Assembly (NCBI GenBank): GCA_964366335.1
Contig: CAYITQ010000003.1
Span: 1 to 39,736, forward strand
Direction: 5' to 3'
DNA from: an uncultured Gammaproteobacteria bacterium
GTDB lineage: Bacteria > Patescibacteriota > Microgenomatia > CAZETR01 > Amesbacteraceae
Length of the DNA: 39,736 nt
Under the pieces are notes generated by a model. The model did no database searches, was not told the DNA's origin, and worked only from the letters and a program-made list of their open reading frames with translations. Shown here piece after piece: positions 13,263 to 39,736 of this stretch; within the stretch, counting starts at the first letter, position 1, and every line of letters begins with the position of its first letter. The position numbers were made by a program, and so were the translations under genes.

Positions 13263-14053
13263 AACTCTTTTTTCAATTTCTCAATCATGGGTACTGCTAC
13301 CGGATCTAGACCGTAAAGCTTGGCTGTGGCCAGAGCTGTGGCATTGGCTAGCGCTAGAAAATTAAATATTTTGTGAAGAGTGTCAGAGCCGGTTAATTCA
13401 ATAAATTTGGTTGGTATGCCTATTTCATTGTAGAGTTTGGCCGTTATTTCCATGCGCTTAATAATTTTGGGATGATCGGATTTGTCAGTGATAAACAAGC
13501 CATAGAAATTTTTGAATTTGGCAAAGCCATTGATTTCATTGTGATCAGCCTCAGGTAAGGTATCGTTAAAGGCAGGGATTTTCCCGGTCTCGTTAAATTT
13601 TATCTTCCAGATATAGCCCAAGGCTTCAAATTTGTTTGATGTGTAGATTAGAGGTATACGATCTTTTATTTCAATTGGATCAGCGGGTTTTATTTCTGGC
13701 AATTCCAATTTTTCTCCTAAAAGTTCATATAAAGCCACAAGGCAGAAATGAATCGCGTCGCGGGGTTGAAGGCCGGCAGGCAGCAAAACAAAAGGCACAT
13801 TATCTTGTTTGGCTTTTTCCAAAAGTTTGCCCCCAATGGTAATGACAGCCCTGTTTAGACCAGCGGCTTTATCGTATGCATCCAAAACTTCCTCGGTATT
13901 ACCCGAATACGAACTCAATATTATAAGTCTATTTTTAATATTTGCTGGCAAACCATAATCACGGTGGACAATAATATCCAGCTCCGGCTTGAGGATTTTT
14001 AGTAAATCCGCTGCCAAGTGAGATCCACCCATGCCCACAACTACTAGTGACAT
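13259..14053 (-). CDS. Bifunctional phosphoglucose/phosphomannose isomerase (SIS), compact form
   Basis: GMGGS, SYSGNTEE, QPR, NETGK, PEADHNE motifs. Confidence 0.9.
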   Translation of the reverse strand: MSLVVVGMGGSHLAADLLKILKPELDIIVHRDYGLPANIKNRLIILSSYSGNTEEVLDAYDKAAGLNRAVITIGGKLLEKAKQDNVPFVLLPAGLQPRDAIHFCLVALYELLGEKLELPEIKPADPIEIKDRIPLIYTSNKFEALGYIWKIKFNETGKIPAFNDTLPEADHNEINGFAKFKNFYGLFITDKSDHPKIIKRMEITAKLYNEIGIPTKFIELTGSDTLHKIFNFLALANATALATAKLYGLDPVAVPMIEKLKKEL

Positions 14054-32437: not shown

Positions 32438-33265
32438 ATGGAAGAAACTAGAATTGCTATCTTCAAGGGTAAAAATATCCGCAAGATCTTATTCAACAAT
32501 GAATGGTGGTTTTCAGTAGTCGATGTTATCGAAGCACTGACGGATAGCTCACAGCCAAGTAAATATTGGACTGCAATGAAAGCTCGAGTAAATAATGATG
32601 ATGGGGTTCAGTTATCTACAATTTGTAGACAACTGAAATTAAAGGCTTCTGATGAAAAGAAATATGAAACTGATTGTGCCAATACCGAAGGGATTTTTCG
32701 TATTATTCAATCTATTCCATCCCCAAAAGCAGAACCATTTAAAAGATGGCTGGCAAAAGTTGGTTATGAACGGGTGCAAGAAATTGAAGACCCTGAGTTG
32801 GCAACAAAGCGAACTAGATTATTATATAAACTTAAGGGTTATTCTGAAGACTGGATAGAGAAAAGACTGCGGGGGATTGCCATCCGTGAAGAACTGACAG
32901 AGGAATGGCAAAAGAGGGGAGTAAGACTGCAAAGAGAGTATGAGATATTGACAGCCGAGATTTCCAAGGCTGCTTTTGGAGTTACTCCTAGTCAGTACAA
33001 GAAACTGAAAGGTCTAAAAAGACAAAATCTGCGTGATCACATGGACGATTTTGAATTAATTTTTACCATGCTTGGCGAAAGGGTAACTACAGAAATTTCC
33101 AAGCAAGAAAAACCAGATACTTTCTCCAAAAATGCAAGTGTCGCCTATCGAGGTGGAAAAGTCGCTGGAAACGCCAGGAGGGAAACAGAAAAAGAAATTG
33201 GTAGAAGTGTTGTTTCCAAAAATAATTATCTCAAAAAACCCAAGGGTCAAAAACGATTACTGTGA
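32438..33265 (+). CDS. Bro-N domain protein
   Basis: EWWFSVVDVI, RIIQSIPSPKAEPFKRWLA, NLRDHM. Confidence 0.9.
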   Translation: MEETRIAIFKGKNIRKILFNNEWWFSVVDVIEALTDSSQPSKYWTAMKARVNNDDGVQLSTICRQLKLKASDEKKYETDCANTEGIFRIIQSIPSPKAEPFKRWLAKVGYERVQEIEDPELATKRTRLLYKLKGYSEDWIEKRLRGIAIREELTEEWQKRGVRLQREYEILTAEISKAAFGVTPSQYKKLKGLKRQNLRDHMDDFELIFTMLGERVTTEISKQEKPDTFSKNASVAYRGGKVAGNARRETEKEIGRSVVSKNNYLKKPKGQKRLL

Positions 33266-33357
33266 GCTAGTTTTTGAAAAAGTTCGCACTCTTTTCAGGA
33301 ATTTGCCCTGAATCTCCGGGCTCATCCCTTGCTTTGCTCGGGATTCGCCTTTTCCGC
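33263..33357 (+). repeat. Left att arm; inverted repeat of 38022-38117
   Basis: 95 nt; 4 substitutions outside a ~22-nt diverged centre. Confidence 0.92.
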
Positions 33358-33484
33358 CGGATTTTTTGCGCGCGCGTTGTCTCGATTGACATCGGGACCC
33401 TTATTAACTAACCATTACATTCTACTACATTCCAAACAGCCCACCCACCCTAAACGAGAAGTCGCCAAATCAAAGGATTTCAAA

Positions 33485-34276
33485 TCAAGACAGAGCTTTT
33501 GAAATTTCGTCAAGACATTTTTCCCTATTCTCTCGTTTAAGTCTTATCTTTTTCGAGAGTATCTTGTACTTGTAATCAATTAATAGCAAGTTTATTAAAG
33601 CCTCTATTGCCTGGCCGTATGCCTTAATAGTCCCTACCATTGATTTCGCTTTCGGCTCATCTATCGGGATCTCAACATTCCGATTTAGGCGAGATAATCT
33701 CTTTTTTCGTCCCGTTCCTTCACAGTTAACCTTAAAAATTCTAATCCAAATTTTGTTTTCATTTGTGTCAGTGTATACCATCATTCCATGTTTAATTTTA
33801 TTTTGAACAAGTTCCAATATTCTTGACTTAACTATTCTTTGTTCAATCGCATCTCTAACAGAACGCCAGACCGTATCCACACCTTCTTTCATTAAAATCT
33901 CATTTGTGCTGTGGATTTTTGCAATTTGACTTATTGGAGGGAAATCAAGCTTCCTCAGAAAACCTCCTAGTGATCTAACGCGTCTAAAACTGTCGATAAC
34001 TTTTTTCGAATCACTATGGTTAGTCCGGATAGATAAAAGTCTCTCCCACTCGTCACGATATTTTTTATCTCCATCGTTTCGTTGCATTATCGCTTGCAAC
34101 CACATGGATAAGTCATCCGTTTGTGCTGCCAACTCCTCAACAATTCTGAGCATTAAAGCCCTTTGCTCATTTAAGTCACGCGAATTTTCAAGTTGGTTGC
34201 ATAAAACATTGGCAGTTTTGTATCTTATGTAGCACGCAAACTCTTTGTAGTTTTTAAAAAATTCAAACCTATTCAT
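33485..34276 (-). CDS. Hypothetical protein (helical; QNKIKHG weakly resembles a HEPN motif)
   Basis: 263-aa ORF, ATGA-coupled to ABC-F. Confidence 0.65.
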   Translation of the reverse strand: MNRFEFFKNYKEFACYIRYKTANVLCNQLENSRDLNEQRALMLRIVEELAAQTDDLSMWLQAIMQRNDGDKKYRDEWERLLSIRTNHSDSKKVIDSFRRVRSLGGFLRKLDFPPISQIAKIHSTNEILMKEGVDTVWRSVRDAIEQRIVKSRILELVQNKIKHGMMVYTDTNENKIWIRIFKVNCEGTGRKKRLSRLNRNVEIPIDEPKAKSMVGTIKAYGQAIEALINLLLIDYKYKILSKKIRLKRENREKCLDEISKALS

Positions 34277-35655
34277 AGTTTAGTCAATTTGCCATTTTCT
34301 AGGTTAACGGAATCTGTAGTACCAATTCTTTCCAAGAAATACCTATCGTGCGAAATTACTAAAAGTGTTCCTGAATAATTTACCAATGCTTCCTCAATAG
34401 CTTCTCGGGAAGAAATATCCAAGTGGTTTGTGGGCTCATCCAGAATGATAAAATTGGCTCCACTGGTCATGATTTTAGCTAGAAGTAGTTTTGCCTTTTC
34501 ACCGCTACTTAACAATTTGACAGGTTGGTTAATTTTTTCCGGTGGCAACAAAAACCTTCTCAATAGTTTGTAACTTTCGGTTTTATCAATATTCTCACTA
34601 GCTAATTCATCTAAAACGATCTTGTCAGAATCTAATTCCTGATGCTCTTGGCTCAAATAACCAGTTTGAACTTCATTTCCAATATTAATTTCTCCACTAT
34701 CAGGTACGAGTTGACCTAAAATGAGTTTGACCAAAGTTGTCTTACCACTACCATTGTCGCCAATTAAAGCCAGTCGTTGACCTTTCTGAATAACCAGAGA
34801 AATATTCTTTAAAATATTTTTATAATTTACTGACTTAATCTGAACCACCGTTTGACCACTTTCCTTTTTTGACTTAAATAATGCTTTTAACTCCCAATTG
34901 GGTTGTGGCTTGTCAATCTTGTCAATGCTTTCTATTCTGTTTTCCAAAGCCTGAATTTGTTTTCCAAATTTCCGACCTACTCGATTGGCAAAGAAAGAAG
35001 CGGCGAATTTATCTTTATCTCTAGTTGGTGGTGCATCAGTGCCACCTTTTTGAACAGTATTTCTTTTTTCCAACAGATCTGCTTGCAACTTCTGTATCTG
35101 TTTTTGTTGCTTTTCGTAATTTCGCAGATGGGACTCTAATTCGATTTGTTTTTGCTGTTTATAAAGTGAATAGTTACCTCCATAAACTTTTATTACTCCA
35201 TTTTCTAATTCAAGAATTTTATCCACAACTTTGTCCAAGAAATAACGGTCATGTGAGACTATTAGGATTGGTCCTGAAAAAGCCATCACTTCTTTTTCCA
35301 GCCAGGACATTCCCTGCCAATCCAAATGATTAGTTGGTTCATCCAGAAGTAATACGTCTGGTTTAGAAATTAATATCTCTCTAAATCGTTTCTTCAGCTT
35401 TTGTCCACTAGACAAAGGATCGTTGTCATCCGCTACTTGAGATAAGTATCCAATCTGGACAGTTTTGGGATTGAAAGTTACATATCCTGAATCCTGCGTT
35501 TCCTCGCCCATTAAGATTTTAAACAAAGTTGATTTACCAGAACCATTTTTGCCCAATAAGGCTACTTTCTCACCGCTGTTTATGGCAAATGAAACATCTT
35601 TAAGAACGTCTTGCCCGCCAAATGATTTTGATAGTTTAGATACTTGAATGTGCAT
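34273..35655 (-). CDS. ABC-F family ATPase (candidate ribosomal protection protein)
   Basis: Two NBDs (GKNGSGKST, GDNGSGKTT, LDEPTNHLD x2, SHDRYFL x2), long interdomain linker, no TM. Confidence 0.92.
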   Translation of the reverse strand: MHIQVSKLSKSFGGQDVLKDVSFAINSGEKVALLGKNGSGKSTLFKILMGEETQDSGYVTFNPKTVQIGYLSQVADDNDPLSSGQKLKKRFREILISKPDVLLLDEPTNHLDWQGMSWLEKEVMAFSGPILIVSHDRYFLDKVVDKILELENGVIKVYGGNYSLYKQQKQIELESHLRNYEKQQKQIQKLQADLLEKRNTVQKGGTDAPPTRDKDKFAASFFANRVGRKFGKQIQALENRIESIDKIDKPQPNWELKALFKSKKESGQTVVQIKSVNYKNILKNISLVIQKGQRLALIGDNGSGKTTLVKLILGQLVPDSGEINIGNEVQTGYLSQEHQELDSDKIVLDELASENIDKTESYKLLRRFLLPPEKINQPVKLLSSGEKAKLLLAKIMTSGANFIILDEPTNHLDISSREAIEEALVNYSGTLLVISHDRYFLERIGTTDSVNLENGKLTKL

Positions 35656-36835
35656 ATTTGTTTACTCGCAAAATAACGGAAAAACCAAAAATCAGTATTC
35701 CCATGACCAGAAAGGTGATCCTAAATGAATATTGAGCCATGATTCCAAAGACAACTGACATAACTCCAATATACAACTTATCCAGCATGGCTATCATAGA
35801 TAAAGTGGTAGCTCGAGATTTTTTATCCAATTGTTTATTTATTAGGGCCGAAATAGTCGGTCCTCTGGTAAAGGTGGAGGCGTAAGTAATTATAAATATC
35901 ATAATCACTGCAATTTGATTATTAAAAGTGGCGAACGCCAAATAACCAAGGCTTGGAAAAATACACATTAAATAAAACGCTTTTTTCTCACCTAACCATT
36001 TTTCAAGTTTTGGAAGCTGACTCATTATTAAAAATGCCAACAAACTAGCGAGGGAGAGTGACCAACCAATCCACAACGGGGTAACAGAAAACTTTACGAA
36101 ATATGGTTGATACAAACCTAAGAGTACTCCCGTGAATGAGTCAGTGAGAATTAAAATTGCGACTATCCACTGTAGTTGTTTGTTGGATAATATATAGGTG
36201 AGTCCATTTGAAAATATTTCTCTAGGTGAAAGTTCAAGGTGTTTATAATCAAGTTTAGATTCTTTAAAGAACAAGGACAATAAAAAAGCCATCGTTACAC
36301 TAATGGCAGTAAACAGAATAGCCACCTTAAATTTAGTTAAAGTTAGTGAAGAAACAATTATTCCCCCAATCAGGGGTGCTATCAGTGAACAAATCAAATA
36401 TGCGCTGGCGTTTAGGCGGGTCGCTTTCTTCATTAAAGCGTGGCTGTCTCCTTTGGGTAGGGAGTCGTATAACAAAGCCTCTCCAGCCCCAGAAGCAAAA
36501 GCAAAGCCAATACCAGCCAGAGCTGAGATTAAAGCAAATCCCCAGTAGTTATTTGTAAACAAATACAAATATTCGCCTGCGGTTTGAATAAACAAAGCGA
36601 TTACTACTGACCATTTGCGACCAATTTTATCAGCCAATATCCCCGTCGGAACTTCAGCTAATAAAGAGGAGATTATTAGAATTGATCCCAACGAGCCAAT
36701 TTGACCCAATGAAAGTCCTCGGGTTTGCAAATATAGCGTTCCGATATGATTGTAAAAATACAAATTGGCAAAGAAAGTCACCGCCACCATGAGAGTGGTA
36801 TTGGACATTCTTGATAATTTATTAAACATACACAT
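35636..36835 (-). CDS. MFS transporter
   Basis: EVPTGILADKIGRK motif A, SGAGEALLYDS, ~12 TM helices; GGAGGT SD 5 nt upstream. Confidence 0.92.
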   Translation of the reverse strand: MCMFNKLSRMSNTTLMVAVTFFANLYFYNHIGTLYLQTRGLSLGQIGSLGSILIISSLLAEVPTGILADKIGRKWSVVIALFIQTAGEYLYLFTNNYWGFALISALAGIGFAFASGAGEALLYDSLPKGDSHALMKKATRLNASAYLICSLIAPLIGGIIVSSLTLTKFKVAILFTAISVTMAFLLSLFFKESKLDYKHLELSPREIFSNGLTYILSNKQLQWIVAILILTDSFTGVLLGLYQPYFVKFSVTPLWIGWSLSLASLLAFLIMSQLPKLEKWLGEKKAFYLMCIFPSLGYLAFATFNNQIAVIMIFIITYASTFTRGPTISALINKQLDKKSRATTLSMIAMLDKLYIGVMSVVFGIMAQYSFRITFLVMGILIFGFSVILRVNKYAHSSI

Positions 36836-36848
36836 ATATTACCTCCAC

Positions 36849-36875
36849 AAAAAAACCAGCTCCTTTGGCTGGTCT
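36849..36875 (-). terminator. Intrinsic terminator (attenuator) in the MFS/ABC-F leader
   Basis: Minus strand ACCAGC-CAAAGGA-GCTGGT followed by a U run, just before the SD. Confidence 0.8.
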
Positions 36876-36925
36876 GGATTTTAATGATTAACTATTATTT
36901 AATAATTCACGCAAAGACCAGCCTT

Positions 36926-36961
36926 TTAGGCTTGGGGTTCTTTGGTAGAATTGTTAACCAT
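36926..36961 (-). CDS. Leader peptide uORF MVNNSTKEPQA
   Basis: ATG 7 nt after TATAAT; overlaps the anti-antiterminator hairpin. Confidence 0.65.
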   Translation of the reverse strand: MVNNSTKEPQA

Positions 36962-36968
36962 TACCACT

Positions 36969-36997
36969 ATTATACTACAAACCTATAATAAATTCAA
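36969..36997 (-). promoter_or_regulatory. Sigma70-type promoter of the uORF-MFS-ABC-F operon
   Basis: TTGAAT-17-TATAAT on the minus strand. Confidence 0.75.
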
Positions 36998-37039
36998 TCG
37001 CAAGATTGAAAACTTCGTGGCTAGTAGTATACTGTACTC

Positions 37040-37900
37040 ATGCTTCCAAAAGGATTCAAAATAAGAAAAATGGTTCGTTCAGAATTGAACGTTGCTGCTG
37101 GTTGGGCGGCTAGTGAGGGTTGGAACCCCGGGCTTCATGATACAGATGTCTTTTGGTTAACTGATCCAGGGGGGTTCATGGCACTAGAAAAAGATGGAGA
37201 AATGATAGGGAGTGTATCTGGAGTTTCCTACAATGGAAAATTTGGTTTTGGAGGTTTCTTTATTATTAAACCAGAATACCGGAAAAAAAGACTTGGTACT
37301 GAATTGGCTAATTATTTTCTAGAAACTCTGGCCACCAGACTTAAAAAGGTCGCTGCCATAGGTATAGATGGGGTGTTTAATATGCAACCGACTTATTCTA
37401 AGTGGGGATTCAAATTTTCGCATCGAAATTTAAGAATGGAAAGCAAAGCAGTCAAGAAATCTTTTTCCAAAAATGTTACAAAAATAGCCTCTGAAGATTT
37501 TGATTCAATCAATAAACTCGATAGTAAATGTTTTGGATTTAATCGAACCAATTTTCTGAAAGGCTGGCTTTTCATGCCTGATAGTCTGGGATATAAATAT
37601 ATGCAAAATGGGGAAATAAAAGGTTTTGGAGTAATAAGAAAATGCGTAAAAGGTTATAAGATTGGTCCACTATTTGCTTCCAACTATGAAGTGGCTCATG
37701 AATTGTTCAAGGCTTTATCATGTTACGCAGTAGACGATTTAATTTATCTGGATGTGCCAGAAATTAATCAAGAAGCAATGAAGCTCGCTAAGAATTACAA
37801 CATGATGGAAATGTTTGGCTGTGCCCGTATGTATCTTGGCAAAGCTCCAAAAATACCATACGACCGAGTATTTGGAGTGACGACATTTGAACTTGGGTGA
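37040..37900 (+). CDS. GNAT family N-acetyltransferase (two-domain, YitH-like)
   Basis: EGWNPG, FFIIKPEYR...LG, Y.K.GF, KIGPLFA; TTGAAA-16-TATACT 6 nt before ATG. Confidence 0.9.
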   Translation: MLPKGFKIRKMVRSELNVAAGWAASEGWNPGLHDTDVFWLTDPGGFMALEKDGEMIGSVSGVSYNGKFGFGGFFIIKPEYRKKRLGTELANYFLETLATRLKKVAAIGIDGVFNMQPTYSKWGFKFSHRNLRMESKAVKKSFSKNVTKIASEDFDSINKLDSKCFGFNRTNFLKGWLFMPDSLGYKYMQNGEIKGFGVIRKCVKGYKIGPLFASNYEVAHELFKALSCYAVDDLIYLDVPEINQEAMKLAKNYNMMEMFGCARMYLGKAPKIPYDRVFGVTTFELG

Positions 37901-37967
37901 TGAAATTGAAAATCTCTGAATAAAAATCCCATTGACTTCGGGGAAGGTTAGGAGAAAATATAATCGC

Positions 37968-38219
37968 ACCTTAAAATTTTTGCGTTTGCTTTGAGAAGAA
38001 AAATGTCCGAGCCGATGTTTAGCGGAAAAGGCGAATCCCGAGTAAAGCGAGGGATGAGCCCGGAGAATTCACAGAGAATTGCGAAAACGGGTGCGGACTT
38101 TTTCAAAAACTAGCTCAGAAAGGGAGTCCCCGCGAGTGGCCAGCTCGGCAAAGCCCATTTTGTATCTGACGCCCAGTTGCCGGAGTCAAATCTCAAAGCA
38201 AACGCAAAAATTTTAAGGT
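37968..38219 (+). ncRNA. Candidate structured leader/ncRNA: perfect 29-bp terminal stem closing a loop antisense to the element's attP region
   Basis: 37968-37996 is the exact reverse complement of 38191-38219; loop segments complement 39590-39605, 33263-33357 and 39611-39690. Transcription is inferred, not shown. Confidence 0.6.
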
Positions 38220-38228
38220 CATTTGCCA

Positions 38229-39716
38229 ATGAAGTACATAGCCTACTGCCGGAAAAGTACAGACGAGAAAGACCGTCAGATTTTGAGTATCGAGTCCCAG
38301 ATCCAAGAGATCAAGGACTTTGCTCAAAAACAGAATCTAGAAATAATCGAATTTGCTACTGAAGCCAAGACTGCCAAAGTCCCGGGTCGTTTGGTTTTTG
38401 AGCAAGTCCTAAGAAAGATTGAAAAAGGAGAGGCTCAAGGAATATTTTCCTGGCATCCCGATAGACTTGCCAGAAATTCTGTTGACGGAGGCAGGATTAT
38501 TTACCTACTCGATACTGGCAAATTACTGGATCTCAAATTCCCATCTTTCTGGTTTGAAAATTCACCCCAAGGAAAATTTGTTCTCAATATGGCCTTTGGT
38601 CAATCAAAGTATTACGTTGACAATCTGTCTGAAAATGTTAAAAGGGGACTGAGGCAACAACTGAGAAATGGTGTCTGGCCGGCCAAATCTCCCTACGGCT
38701 ACATTTACAATAAACCAGCCAAGAAACATGAGATTGATCCGATTAAATCTAAGTTCATCAAAAAGGCTTTTCAGCAGTATGCCAGTGGGGAGTGGGGACA
38801 GACACAAATAGCAGACGTACTTTTTGAACATGGTTACTCTAGAAAAAATGGCAAGCCACTTTCATTAAATGAAGTAGTCCATTTCTTAACCAACAAGTTT
38901 TACATTGGTCTGTTCAAATATAACAGTGAATGGCATGAAGGCAGACATGAGCAATTTATTAGTAAAAGCCTTTTTGATGAAGTCCAAAGAAAATTAAGCA
39001 CAAACAAAAAAGTATTTAAAGGACACAAATTTTCCTTTTTGGGACTGGCTAAGTGTGGTGAATGTGGAGCCAGTATCACGGCCGAACACAAAACAAAGAT
39101 CTACAAACGTACCCGGGGTAAAGTTGAATATATTTACTACCGTTGTACCAAGAAGCTCAAACCCTGTACTCAAAAGTATATCCAAGAGCCAGTTCTTGAA
39201 CAGCAACTCAGAAAAATTATTTCTGACGTTGCCTTACCCCAATCGTGGGCAGATCAATGGAATCAATGGTTAGACAGAGATGAGATCACCGAAAAACAAC
39301 AAACTAGTCAAAGAATAACCGAGACTGAAATCGAAACCAAAAGACTGGATGAGAAACTAAACACATTACTAGATGGATATTTAGATGGAACTATTGATGC
39401 CAATATTTACAAGACCAAAAAGAATGAATTATTTGAAAACAAAGTGAAGTTACAAGACCAAATAGTCAAACTTCAGACCCAAGGCTCGAGTTGGCTCGGA
39501 CCAATGCGAGAATTTATAAATATAGCGGTAGATGGGGACAAAACCGCGCGCGCAAAAAATAATGCCGACGAACTTTGTTCCATCGGCAAAAACATCGGCT
39601 CGGACTACTTTTTGACTAACCGGCAACTGGGCGTCAGGTACAAAATGGGCTTTGCCGAGCTGGCCGTTCGCGGGAACTCCTTTTCTGAGCGAGTGAAGGG
39701 AATCGAACCCTCGTGA
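38229..39716 (+). CDS. Large serine recombinase (resolvase, recombinase, zinc ribbon and coiled-coil domains)
   Basis: YCRKS catalytic Ser, DRLARN, PYGY, CGECG...YYRC; last codons run antisense through tRNA-Gly. Confidence 0.95.
   Translation: MKYIAYCRKSTDEKDRQILSIESQIQEIKDFAQKQNLEIIEFATEAKTAKVPGRLVFEQVLRKIEKGEAQGIFSWHPDRLARNSVDGGRIIYLLDTGKLLDLKFPSFWFENSPQGKFVLNMAFGQSKYYVDNLSENVKRGLRQQLRNGVWPAKSPYGYIYNKPAKKHEIDPIKSKFIKKAFQQYASGEWGQTQIADVLFEHGYSRKNGKPLSLNEVVHFLTNKFYIGLFKYNSEWHEGRHEQFISKSLFDEVQRKLSTNKKVFKGHKFSFLGLAKCGECGASITAEHKTKIYKRTRGKVEYIYYRCTKKLKPCTQKYIQEPVLEQQLRKIISDVALPQSWADQWNQWLDRDEITEKQQTSQRITETEIETKRLDEKLNTLLDGYLDGTIDANIYKTKKNELFENKVKLQDQIVKLQTQGSSWLGPMREFINIAVDGDKTARAKNNADELCSIGKNIGSDYFLTNRQLGVRYKMGFAELAVRGNSFSERVKGIEPS
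39620..39690 (+). repeat. Right att arm inside the recombinase CDS; inverted repeat of 38113-38183
   Basis: 66/71 identity to the reverse complement. Confidence 0.95.
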
Positions 39717-39736
39717 CAACTTTGGAAAAGTTGCGT
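39688..39736 (-). tRNA. tRNA-Gly(TCC), 3' part, truncated by window end
   Basis: CAACT-TTTCCAA-AGTTG anticodon arm; GAGGG-TTCGATT-CCCTT T-arm; CACTCGC-T acceptor strand. Confidence 0.9.

Follow-up and report, generated by a model that had tools for sequence, protein, structure and literature searches.

Why is a serine recombinase gene preceded by an inverted copy of its own attachment site, held within a stem that reaches almost to the start codon? The question is raised by an integrative element near the end of the window, by which we mean the whole stretch of DNA analysed here (39,736 nt). The window is the entire 39.7-kb contig of a 0.76-Mb genome (60 contigs), and its right end falls inside a tRNA gene.

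The element and the leader of its recombinase gene

The element spans positions 33263-39690 and lies beside the tRNA gene that is its integration target (Table 1). Its ABC-F-type ATPase, MFS transporter and GNAT acetyltransferase make up a cargo set resembling antibiotic-tolerance genes. On one metagenome contig (depth 23.4; one contig in one run), position 33398 is joined to 37956; thus, a variant without the cargo exists and co-occurs in the same sample. At the left junction, the TGA stop of an ORF with a Bro-N domain (32438-33265) falls within the TGAGC core, and this ORF may be part of a neighbouring mobile element. No further copies of the repeats of the element and leader were found anywhere in the 760-kb genome.

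The first-pass annotation had described the leader as an antisense copy of the junction that exists in the excised form, closed by a perfect stem, and the repeats bear this out. The two stem arms (M′ and M) are 100% complementary over 29 nt, and segment A pairs 16/16 with its target A′. Segment B matches the left end in two parts (38022-38066 with 33313-33357 at 96%; 38067-38117 with 33263-33313 at 80%), or at 86.5% over 96 nt when aligned by BLAST to 33263-33357. Segment C matches the right end at 92% (38109-38183 with 39620-39694), the BLAST match (90.5% over 84 nt) extending to 38190/39611. Because B and C share 38109-38117, their junction is seamless, as had been claimed. Joining 39690 to 33263 would give a sequence whose reverse complement fills the 190 nt between the stem arms, which makes this stretch an inverted attP. 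We call this leader copy P2, and the copy that is split across both element ends P1. One repeat had been overlooked, namely the 16/16 complementarity of 33361-33376, the T-run of D′, to 39545-39560. At 86–92% identity, the window's own P2 has diverged from the arms, so that this particular element may be old, decaying or inactive.

As the first-pass annotation had noted, the right stem arm covers the sequence TAAGGT (38214-38219), 9 nt ahead of the ATG at 38229. When positions 37965-38235, the leader alone, are folded as RNA, the 29-bp stem closes (MFE −98.6 kcal/mol; z = −5.99; equalled by 0 of 200 shuffled sequences). Transcription from the promoter-like site upstream would begin close to the stem's first base. 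The window leader has no match among Rfam 15 covariance models at E-values up to 5, and no tRNA-like fold was detected in B by ARAGORN or Rfam.

Table 1. Positions of the features of the element in the window, with three of the pseudoknot loci of relatives
Feature	Position	Strand	Remarks
B′, left arm (attL side)	33263..33357	+	Begins with a copy of the TGAGC core; repeat match, BLAST
D′, terminator-like hairpin and T-run just inside the left end	33339..33376	+	
Cargo	33485..37900	both	ORFs and domain matches
Cargo ORF, 263-aa protein of no family	within 33485..37900	−	
Cargo ORF, ABC-F-like ATPase	within 33485..37900	−	
Cargo ORF, MFS transporter	within 33485..37900	−	
Cargo ORF, GNAT acetyltransferase	within 33485..37900	+	
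Promoter-like site (TTGACT, 16 nt, GAAAAT)	37932..37959	+	Consensus match only
M′, left stem arm, strand opposite to the start region	37968..37996	+	Core motif kept across the family
A, reverse complement of 39590-39605	38005..38020	+	Holds the T-loop-like motif GTCCGAGCC
B, inverted copy of left arm B′	38022..38117	+	Repeat match, BLAST
C, inverted copy of gene end C′	38109..38190	+	Shared core 38109-38117, so that B and C form an intact inverted attP
M, right stem arm	38191..38219	+	Ends 9 nt before the ATG; covers TAAGGT
Large serine recombinase, frame of the integrated form, 495 aa	38229..39716	+	No stop before the core; last 8 codons are tRNA-gene antisense
First copy of GGCTCGGAC, frame W-L-G-P	39493..39501	+	Same motif again at 39597-39605 in the other frame
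Hairpin followed by T-run, resembling an intrinsic terminator, inside the recombinase coding region	39563..39588	− (tRNA strand)	
A′, target of A	39590..39605	+	Encodes K-N-I-G-S-D
C′, right arm (attR side)	39611..39694	+	Coding as far as the core, 39686-39690
3′ part of the tRNA gene targeted by integration	39688..39736	−	Cut by the contig end
Pseudoknot in relatives	L100:9540-9638, L104:2801-2899, L094:4733-4831		These and 9 more loci; absent from the window

Conservation and order of the leader segments

Homologues of the recombinase are present in 67 of 101 related genomes, and a scan of one genome per species added 80 loci, all of them in MAGs whose titles are of Patescibacteria type; the closest matches to the window are from Microgenomates-group Patescibacteria. 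There are 93 distinct loci, and the 85 with at least 250 nt of upstream sequence were used to count leader copies. An inverted copy of the gene's own end lies upstream of the recombinase in 72 of these 85 loci, and a C copy in direct orientation in none. In 44 loci the B part matches, again inverted, a site 1–10 kb further upstream, which gives element sizes of 2.4–10.6 kb. The C copy is identical to its arm in 18/72 loci and at least 97% identical in 34/72; the corresponding figures for B are 14/44 and 34/44. The first-pass annotation had named the presence of the copy in homologues, and the co-divergence of loop and arms, as the points on which its description would stand or fall, and both are found: the leader copy is closer to its own arms than to the best foreign arms in 62/72 loci for C and 41/44 for B. 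Mismatches are evenly distributed along the arms at a uniform density of 2–5% over ~200 nt, and indels are matched between the two copies. The C′ match adjoins a convergent tRNA gene in 55 of the 72 loci, involving 23 different tRNA genes, and overlaps the tRNA end by 4–10 nt in 53 of these 55. Since the same layout recurs in 72/85 loci from many independent assemblies, complete genomes included, an assembly artefact is unlikely.

No C copy was detected in the remaining 13 of the 85 loci. The sequence stops before the 3′ end of the gene in four of them (L098, L122, L125, L127); L051 has the simple form described below; L047 has a split gene and lies outside the count of 72, yet an inverted gene-end copy was found there in earlier contexts; L116 and L120 have B only; and neither C nor B was found in L099, L108, L115, L118 and L119. 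The leader copy is also lacking in a homologue of 44% identity (L136), and in three distant homologues beside tRNA genes (L137, L139 and L141; 35–39% identity). Four loci (L066, L087, L091, L129) have a small additional ORF between M and the start of the recombinase gene, whose product of ~100 aa is hydrophobic at its C-terminus. Locus L036 has, 1.4 kb to the left of its element, a degenerate miniature B′...C′ pair (13363-13500; ~79% identity) with directly adjoining arms, which looks like a remnant without a recombinase.

The stem arms are perfectly paired in almost every locus: across 55 loci there are 1140 Watson–Crick pairs and 11 others, and lineage-specific variants (GCG, ACG, GCA, GCC and GC-rich replacements) are mirrored on the opposite arm. 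M ends 7–78 nt ahead of the ATG, and one subgroup has a bipartite helix whose end adjoins an AGGAG-like sequence. The earlier proposal of a helix covering the region immediately ahead of the start codon is thus supported both by the fold and by the conservation of both arms. We also considered M′ as a divergent expression signal and rejected it, a leftward gene starting beside M′ in only 4 of 50 loci. The nature of P2 seems settled: it is a second attP, intact, inverted and conserved, which lies in the leader within a helix that masks the start, and it belongs to an element whose recombinase gene is complete in the circle only.

Of the 49 loci examined for segment order, 48 read M′-A-B-C-M, and A and B are in most of them 0 nt apart; the conservation of stem and layout that the first-pass annotation asked about is real. 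Its explanation of that order, a circular permutation of the ends that fits once the stem brings C next to A, is not supported. The closest relative (L031 = L051; 86% protein identity) has no leader copy, and its left end reads core-B′-A′-M-ATG. The B′-A′-M of this relative is the reverse complement of the left stem arm, A and B of the window (87% over 150 nt), so that the leader M′-A-B|C is simply the inverted image of the contiguous C′|B′-A′-M of a simple-form circle. Nor is the order universal: a clade further removed from the window (L041, L044, L135) reads plainly B-C-A, and after it come short antisense tiles that match internal segments of the gene and in L135 and L044 run in descending gene order. 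The B-C-A loci L041, L044 and L047 have P2 upstream of an extended −10 promoter. The boundaries of the layout and the tiling are kept across proteins of down to ~43% identity.

In many relatives, the window not being one of them, M′ is preceded by a −10 box and a pseudoknot (Table 1). The recombinase transcript would begin with this conserved H-type pseudoknot of ~95 nt, which lies just downstream of the −10 box and interleaves a helix of ~20 bp with one of 11 bp. In the alignment of 12 sequences, pairing holds in 96.4% of cells, and both partners have changed in 10 of 21 pairs, compared with 0–2 in slid controls; the U:G pairs are on the sense strand. Because the −10 box and the covarying pseudoknot are upstream of M′, P2 would lie within a long structured 5′ UTR in the window's clade. 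A related form of the pseudoknot stands directly before the ATG in L041 and L047. Four related loci other than the 12 aligned, including L017 and L028 with a related pseudoknot form, have no match in Rfam 15 at E-values up to 1.

Site recognition and the reading frame across the core

The recombinase has the catalytic, recombinase and zinc-ribbon domains of an integrase-type large serine recombinase (Resolvase, PF00239, 4.8e-19; Recombinase, PF07508, 1.5e-14; Zn_ribbon_recom, PF13408, 1.5e-09). Its best solved relative is SprA/YokA (9dxh; E = 2e-11, aligned over residues 4–412), and no extra domain was detected with Pfam or by comparison with solved structures. The sites follow the same pattern. 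As in integrase systems, attP and attB share only a short identity (4–10 nt in 53/55). A GTTCGA-like motif in the B arm lies 23–27 nt from the crossover centre in 35 of the 39 arms that have the motif, and the GTTCGA of the tRNA T-loop lies 18–22 nt from it in 33/36; the modal distances among 42 elements examined are 25 and 20 nt, respectively, an offset of ~5 bp that is visible at the tRNA-side half-site only. For LI integrase, the attB copy of the zinc-ribbon motif is described as closer to the centre than the attP copy, by 5 bp (PMC3783163), and the distal motif of the present family is shifted outward in attP by about the same distance. By domains and sites alike, this is a canonical large serine recombinase that is guided by protein; its recombination is seen here through genomic end products. 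The universal T-loop sequence seems to be what the family recognises in tRNA genes, and such recognition would account for its many tRNA targets.

A 9-nt motif, GGCTCGGAC in the window and GGCTCGAAC in most relatives, occurs in the frames W-L-E/G-P and I-G-S-N/D. The form GGCTCGAAC is the reverse complement of the T-loop-like GTTCGAGCC, and it is held at synonymous sites in two frames near the 3′ end of the gene: its serine is encoded by TCG in 79/81 genes vs. 14.8% of all serine codons, and its leucine by CTC in 78/80 vs. 15.3% of all leucine codons. Segment A is the antisense of one of the two motif copies, and thus corresponds to a specific sequence element, not to an arbitrary pairing partner.

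The recombinase frame is open through the att core in 66 of 68 elements. Integration therefore swaps the C-terminus for residues read from the antisense strand of the tRNA gene (8 codons in the window). In circles closed in silico, the frame ends 12–18 codons into B′ in 35/42 elements, with a recurrent short tail resembling K-[I/V]-R-T-x-F; in the window, the first ~15 codons of B′ would finish the frame in the excised form. Only the excised circle would encode the native C-terminus. The tail overlaps a conserved DNA motif, however, and so may not be under selection as protein. A hairpin and T-run on the tRNA strand, within the recombinase coding region just past A′, recurs in 67 of 89 related loci; the sequence of these embedded terminator-like hairpins varies between loci, while their pairing is kept. 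Of 44 relatives, 30 have a T-run after B′. Read-through from the tRNA gene should stop at the terminator-like site inside the recombinase coding region; the resulting RNA would be antisense to the 3′ end of the recombinase gene and would share its C-A sequence with the leader.

P2 has been used as a site in two relatives. In L103 and L118 a tRNA-Glu gene, co-directional with the recombinase gene and 128–129 nt upstream, is joined directly to C-M-ATG, which shows recombination between P2 and a second tRNA gene. The recombinase gene of both loci lies between two inverted tRNA-Glu genes (L103:9796-11582, with anticodon ttc upstream and ctc downstream; L118:9796-11335, with the recombinase gene truncated), an arrangement that would be expected if both attP copies had recombined with tRNA genes. 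A third locus, L045 (G092:C15), is an isomer in which the segment from B′ to B is inverted; its left end reads B′-A′-hairpin-M and then the pseudoknot in reverse complement, and ahead of B there is a D-like A-run. An isomer flipped between C and C′ is not found among the 72 loci, B′ directly follows C′ (as in excised or tandem forms) in 0/72, and contigs of four runs, which can miss rare forms, contain no joint at the stem arms. An inverton, that is, an invertible promoter switch, was considered and rejected, because 72/72 copies are inverted relative to the ends in a single orientation.

Proposed control of expression by the spare site, and comparison with known systems

Our preferred reading, to which we assign a probability of roughly 40%, is that P2 and the masking helix would form a double lock on recombinase expression, by which the transcribed leader holds both a binding site for the enzyme itself and a helix over the start region. 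P2 (~190 nt, with the adjoining left-end piece copied along) would lie in the transcribed leader of the recombinase gene. Since P2 has the sequence of a real site, we infer that the recombinase must bind it, and from this also the repression and the sign of regulation: in the window and its clade, enzyme on P2 would sit between promoter and start codon and repress its own gene. Transcripts from the gene's own promoter would carry both M′ and M, whose helix would cover the region before the start and loop out the attP copy. Such a lock would matter because the gene is already state-dependent, through the frame across the core; in the chromosome, the gene also faces a tRNA gene whose read-through should end at the terminator-like site inside the recombinase coding region. 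Recombination at P2 would separate M′ from M and could put the gene behind a tRNA gene. Several observations tell against the double lock: a roadblock cannot work in L041, L044 and L047, where P2 is upstream of the promoter; binding would need only ~50 bp, but the likeness extends over ~200 nt; the short perfect antisense tiles to internal coding segments are left unexplained; and the window's own P2 has diverged from its arms.

The leader could instead be an RNA sensor of the junction state that distinguishes excised from integrated DNA, its loop pairing with the 3′ end of its own mRNA; we consider this possible but doubtful. Only in the excised circle would the mRNA pass the core into B′ and present the full C′-core-B′ complement; in the chromosome, the tRNA read-through RNA, having the same C-A sequence as the loop, would compete for the mRNA 3′ end, and pairing would open the start-masking helix, keep it shut or trigger RNase III. 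The complementarity of the leader to both the coding 3′ end and B′ fits such a sensor, as do the conserved helix, the T-run after B′ and the minus-strand terminator after A, which would delimit the tRNA trailer; both leader types are also free of terminator hairpins, and so transcribable throughout. If true, an element without a directionality-factor gene would set direction through RNA and a state-dependent C-terminus. A wobble bias is missing, however: of the mismatches between the copies, 46 are compatible with G:U pairing on the sense strand and 58 on the opposite strand, besides 94 transversions and 64 gaps; these counts include some secondary matches to other remnants. The copy of the B-C-A clade, being upstream of the promoter, is outside the transcript. 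Given these two observations, the view that pairing between RNAs maintains the likeness of the copies is not supported. A duplex of 100–200 bp within a stem-closed loop would also be topologically hindered. An apparent strand asymmetry in the folding of the arms (B better than B′, 19 vs. 4) was likewise discarded, since the equal z-scores (−1.81 and −1.79) make it an effect of composition.

The matched indels suggest copying, and the descending antisense tiles of L135 and L044 resemble an inverted gene copy with deletions; these features, and degenerate copies that look neutral, would suit a functionless by-product, the remnant of a head-to-head duplication whose copies are kept alike by gene conversion. 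We regard this as unlikely, given that boundaries and tiling persist among such divergent proteins and that arms of only 16–30 bp stay perfect, repeats so short being poor substrates for homologous recombination. It is also improbable that P2 is a spare 3′-end cassette for an invertible gene, by which recombination between the inverted C and C′ would flip the gene onto the intact C′|B′ of P2, restore the native C-terminus and place the gene behind the tRNA promoter without M′. The native stop of the frame does require B′, C abuts M in most loci, and the inversion between B′ and B in L045 demonstrates that arm-mediated inversion occurs. Against this, the C/C′-flipped isomer is absent, and the overlapping DNA motif can account for the conservation of the tail peptide; the single flipped locus indicates that flipping is rare overall, so that the absence is no strong argument.

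The suggestion of the first-pass annotation that the leader is an RNA cofactor or guide, here taken to include a trans-acting RNA that bridges attL and attR in place of a directionality factor, we hold to be very improbable. A single RNA would carry complements of both element ends, and the minimal elements (2.4–3.5 kb) have little space for a directionality-factor gene, which upholds the earlier remark that none is recognisable. Site recognition nevertheless obeys the protein rule of serine integrases, with the full Resolvase, Recombinase and zinc-ribbon set and no extra domain detected. An RNA-guided recombinase would match donor and target, whereas the leader is complementary to its own arms only, with no tRNA match beyond the 4–10-nt core. 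Literature searches on RNA guiding in serine recombinases found nothing.

The elements form a compact tRNA-targeting family (2.4–10.6 kb; 23 tRNA genes among 55 mapped ends) in bacteria otherwise poor in known mobile DNA. T-loop recognition, the frame completed only in the circle and the inverted spare attP bear on how expression and direction could be controlled without a recognisable directionality-factor gene, and on the retargeting of serine recombinases, which is relevant to those who use them for DNA insertion. Searches of the literature on serine recombinases of Patescibacteria, on RNA-guided or antisense control of serine integrases and on attP within integrase genes returned no description of this layout; supplements were outside their scope, and a description may exist in print.

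Several known systems share single features with this one. In phage lambda, sib is a cis element across att from int that shares a transcript with int in the non-integrated form alone, where it acts as a local RNase III hairpin downstream of int. As in this retroregulation, expression here would report the integration state; unlike sib, the complement with its proposed regulatory effect is in the 5′ leader. The attP site lies inside the integrase gene in Mx8 intP/intX and SSV1 int, so that integration alters or splits the frame as it does here; those enzymes are tyrosine recombinases without a spare inverted copy of the site, whereas the present serine enzyme keeps one. In the fold-back inhibition of IS10, an upstream complementary segment masks the transposase translation start in some transcripts, which resembles the masking by M′ except that the two strands are here ~200–280 nt apart and enclose an attP copy. 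A recombinase gene or cassette between inverted copies of the enzyme's own site is familiar from FLP/FRT of the yeast 2-micron plasmid and from engineered cassette exchange with inverted attP sites; the element here has no sign of replication functions, unlike the 2-micron plasmid, and we know of no attP x attP recombination by serine integrases.

With the integrases of LI/A118, Bxb1 and phiC31 and with SPbeta SprA, the family shares the domain set, the short core of attP and attB, and the distal motif ~5 bp further out in attP. It differs from the large serine integrases of phages and integrative elements in targeting the 3′ ends of many tRNA genes via the T-loop sequence, in a frame that spans attP, in the second, inverted attP of the leader, and in minimal elements without a recognisable directionality-factor gene. 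A non-coding region upstream of a recombinase gene that is complementary to the joined ends is also known from the bridge RNA of IS110 (Nature 2024, PMC11208160), which is described as having short loops for donor and target and as serving a DEDD enzyme without DNA-reading domains of its own. Compared with the bridge RNA, the leader described here has a complement of ~200 nt and no target loop, and it belongs to an enzyme with a full protein reading head.
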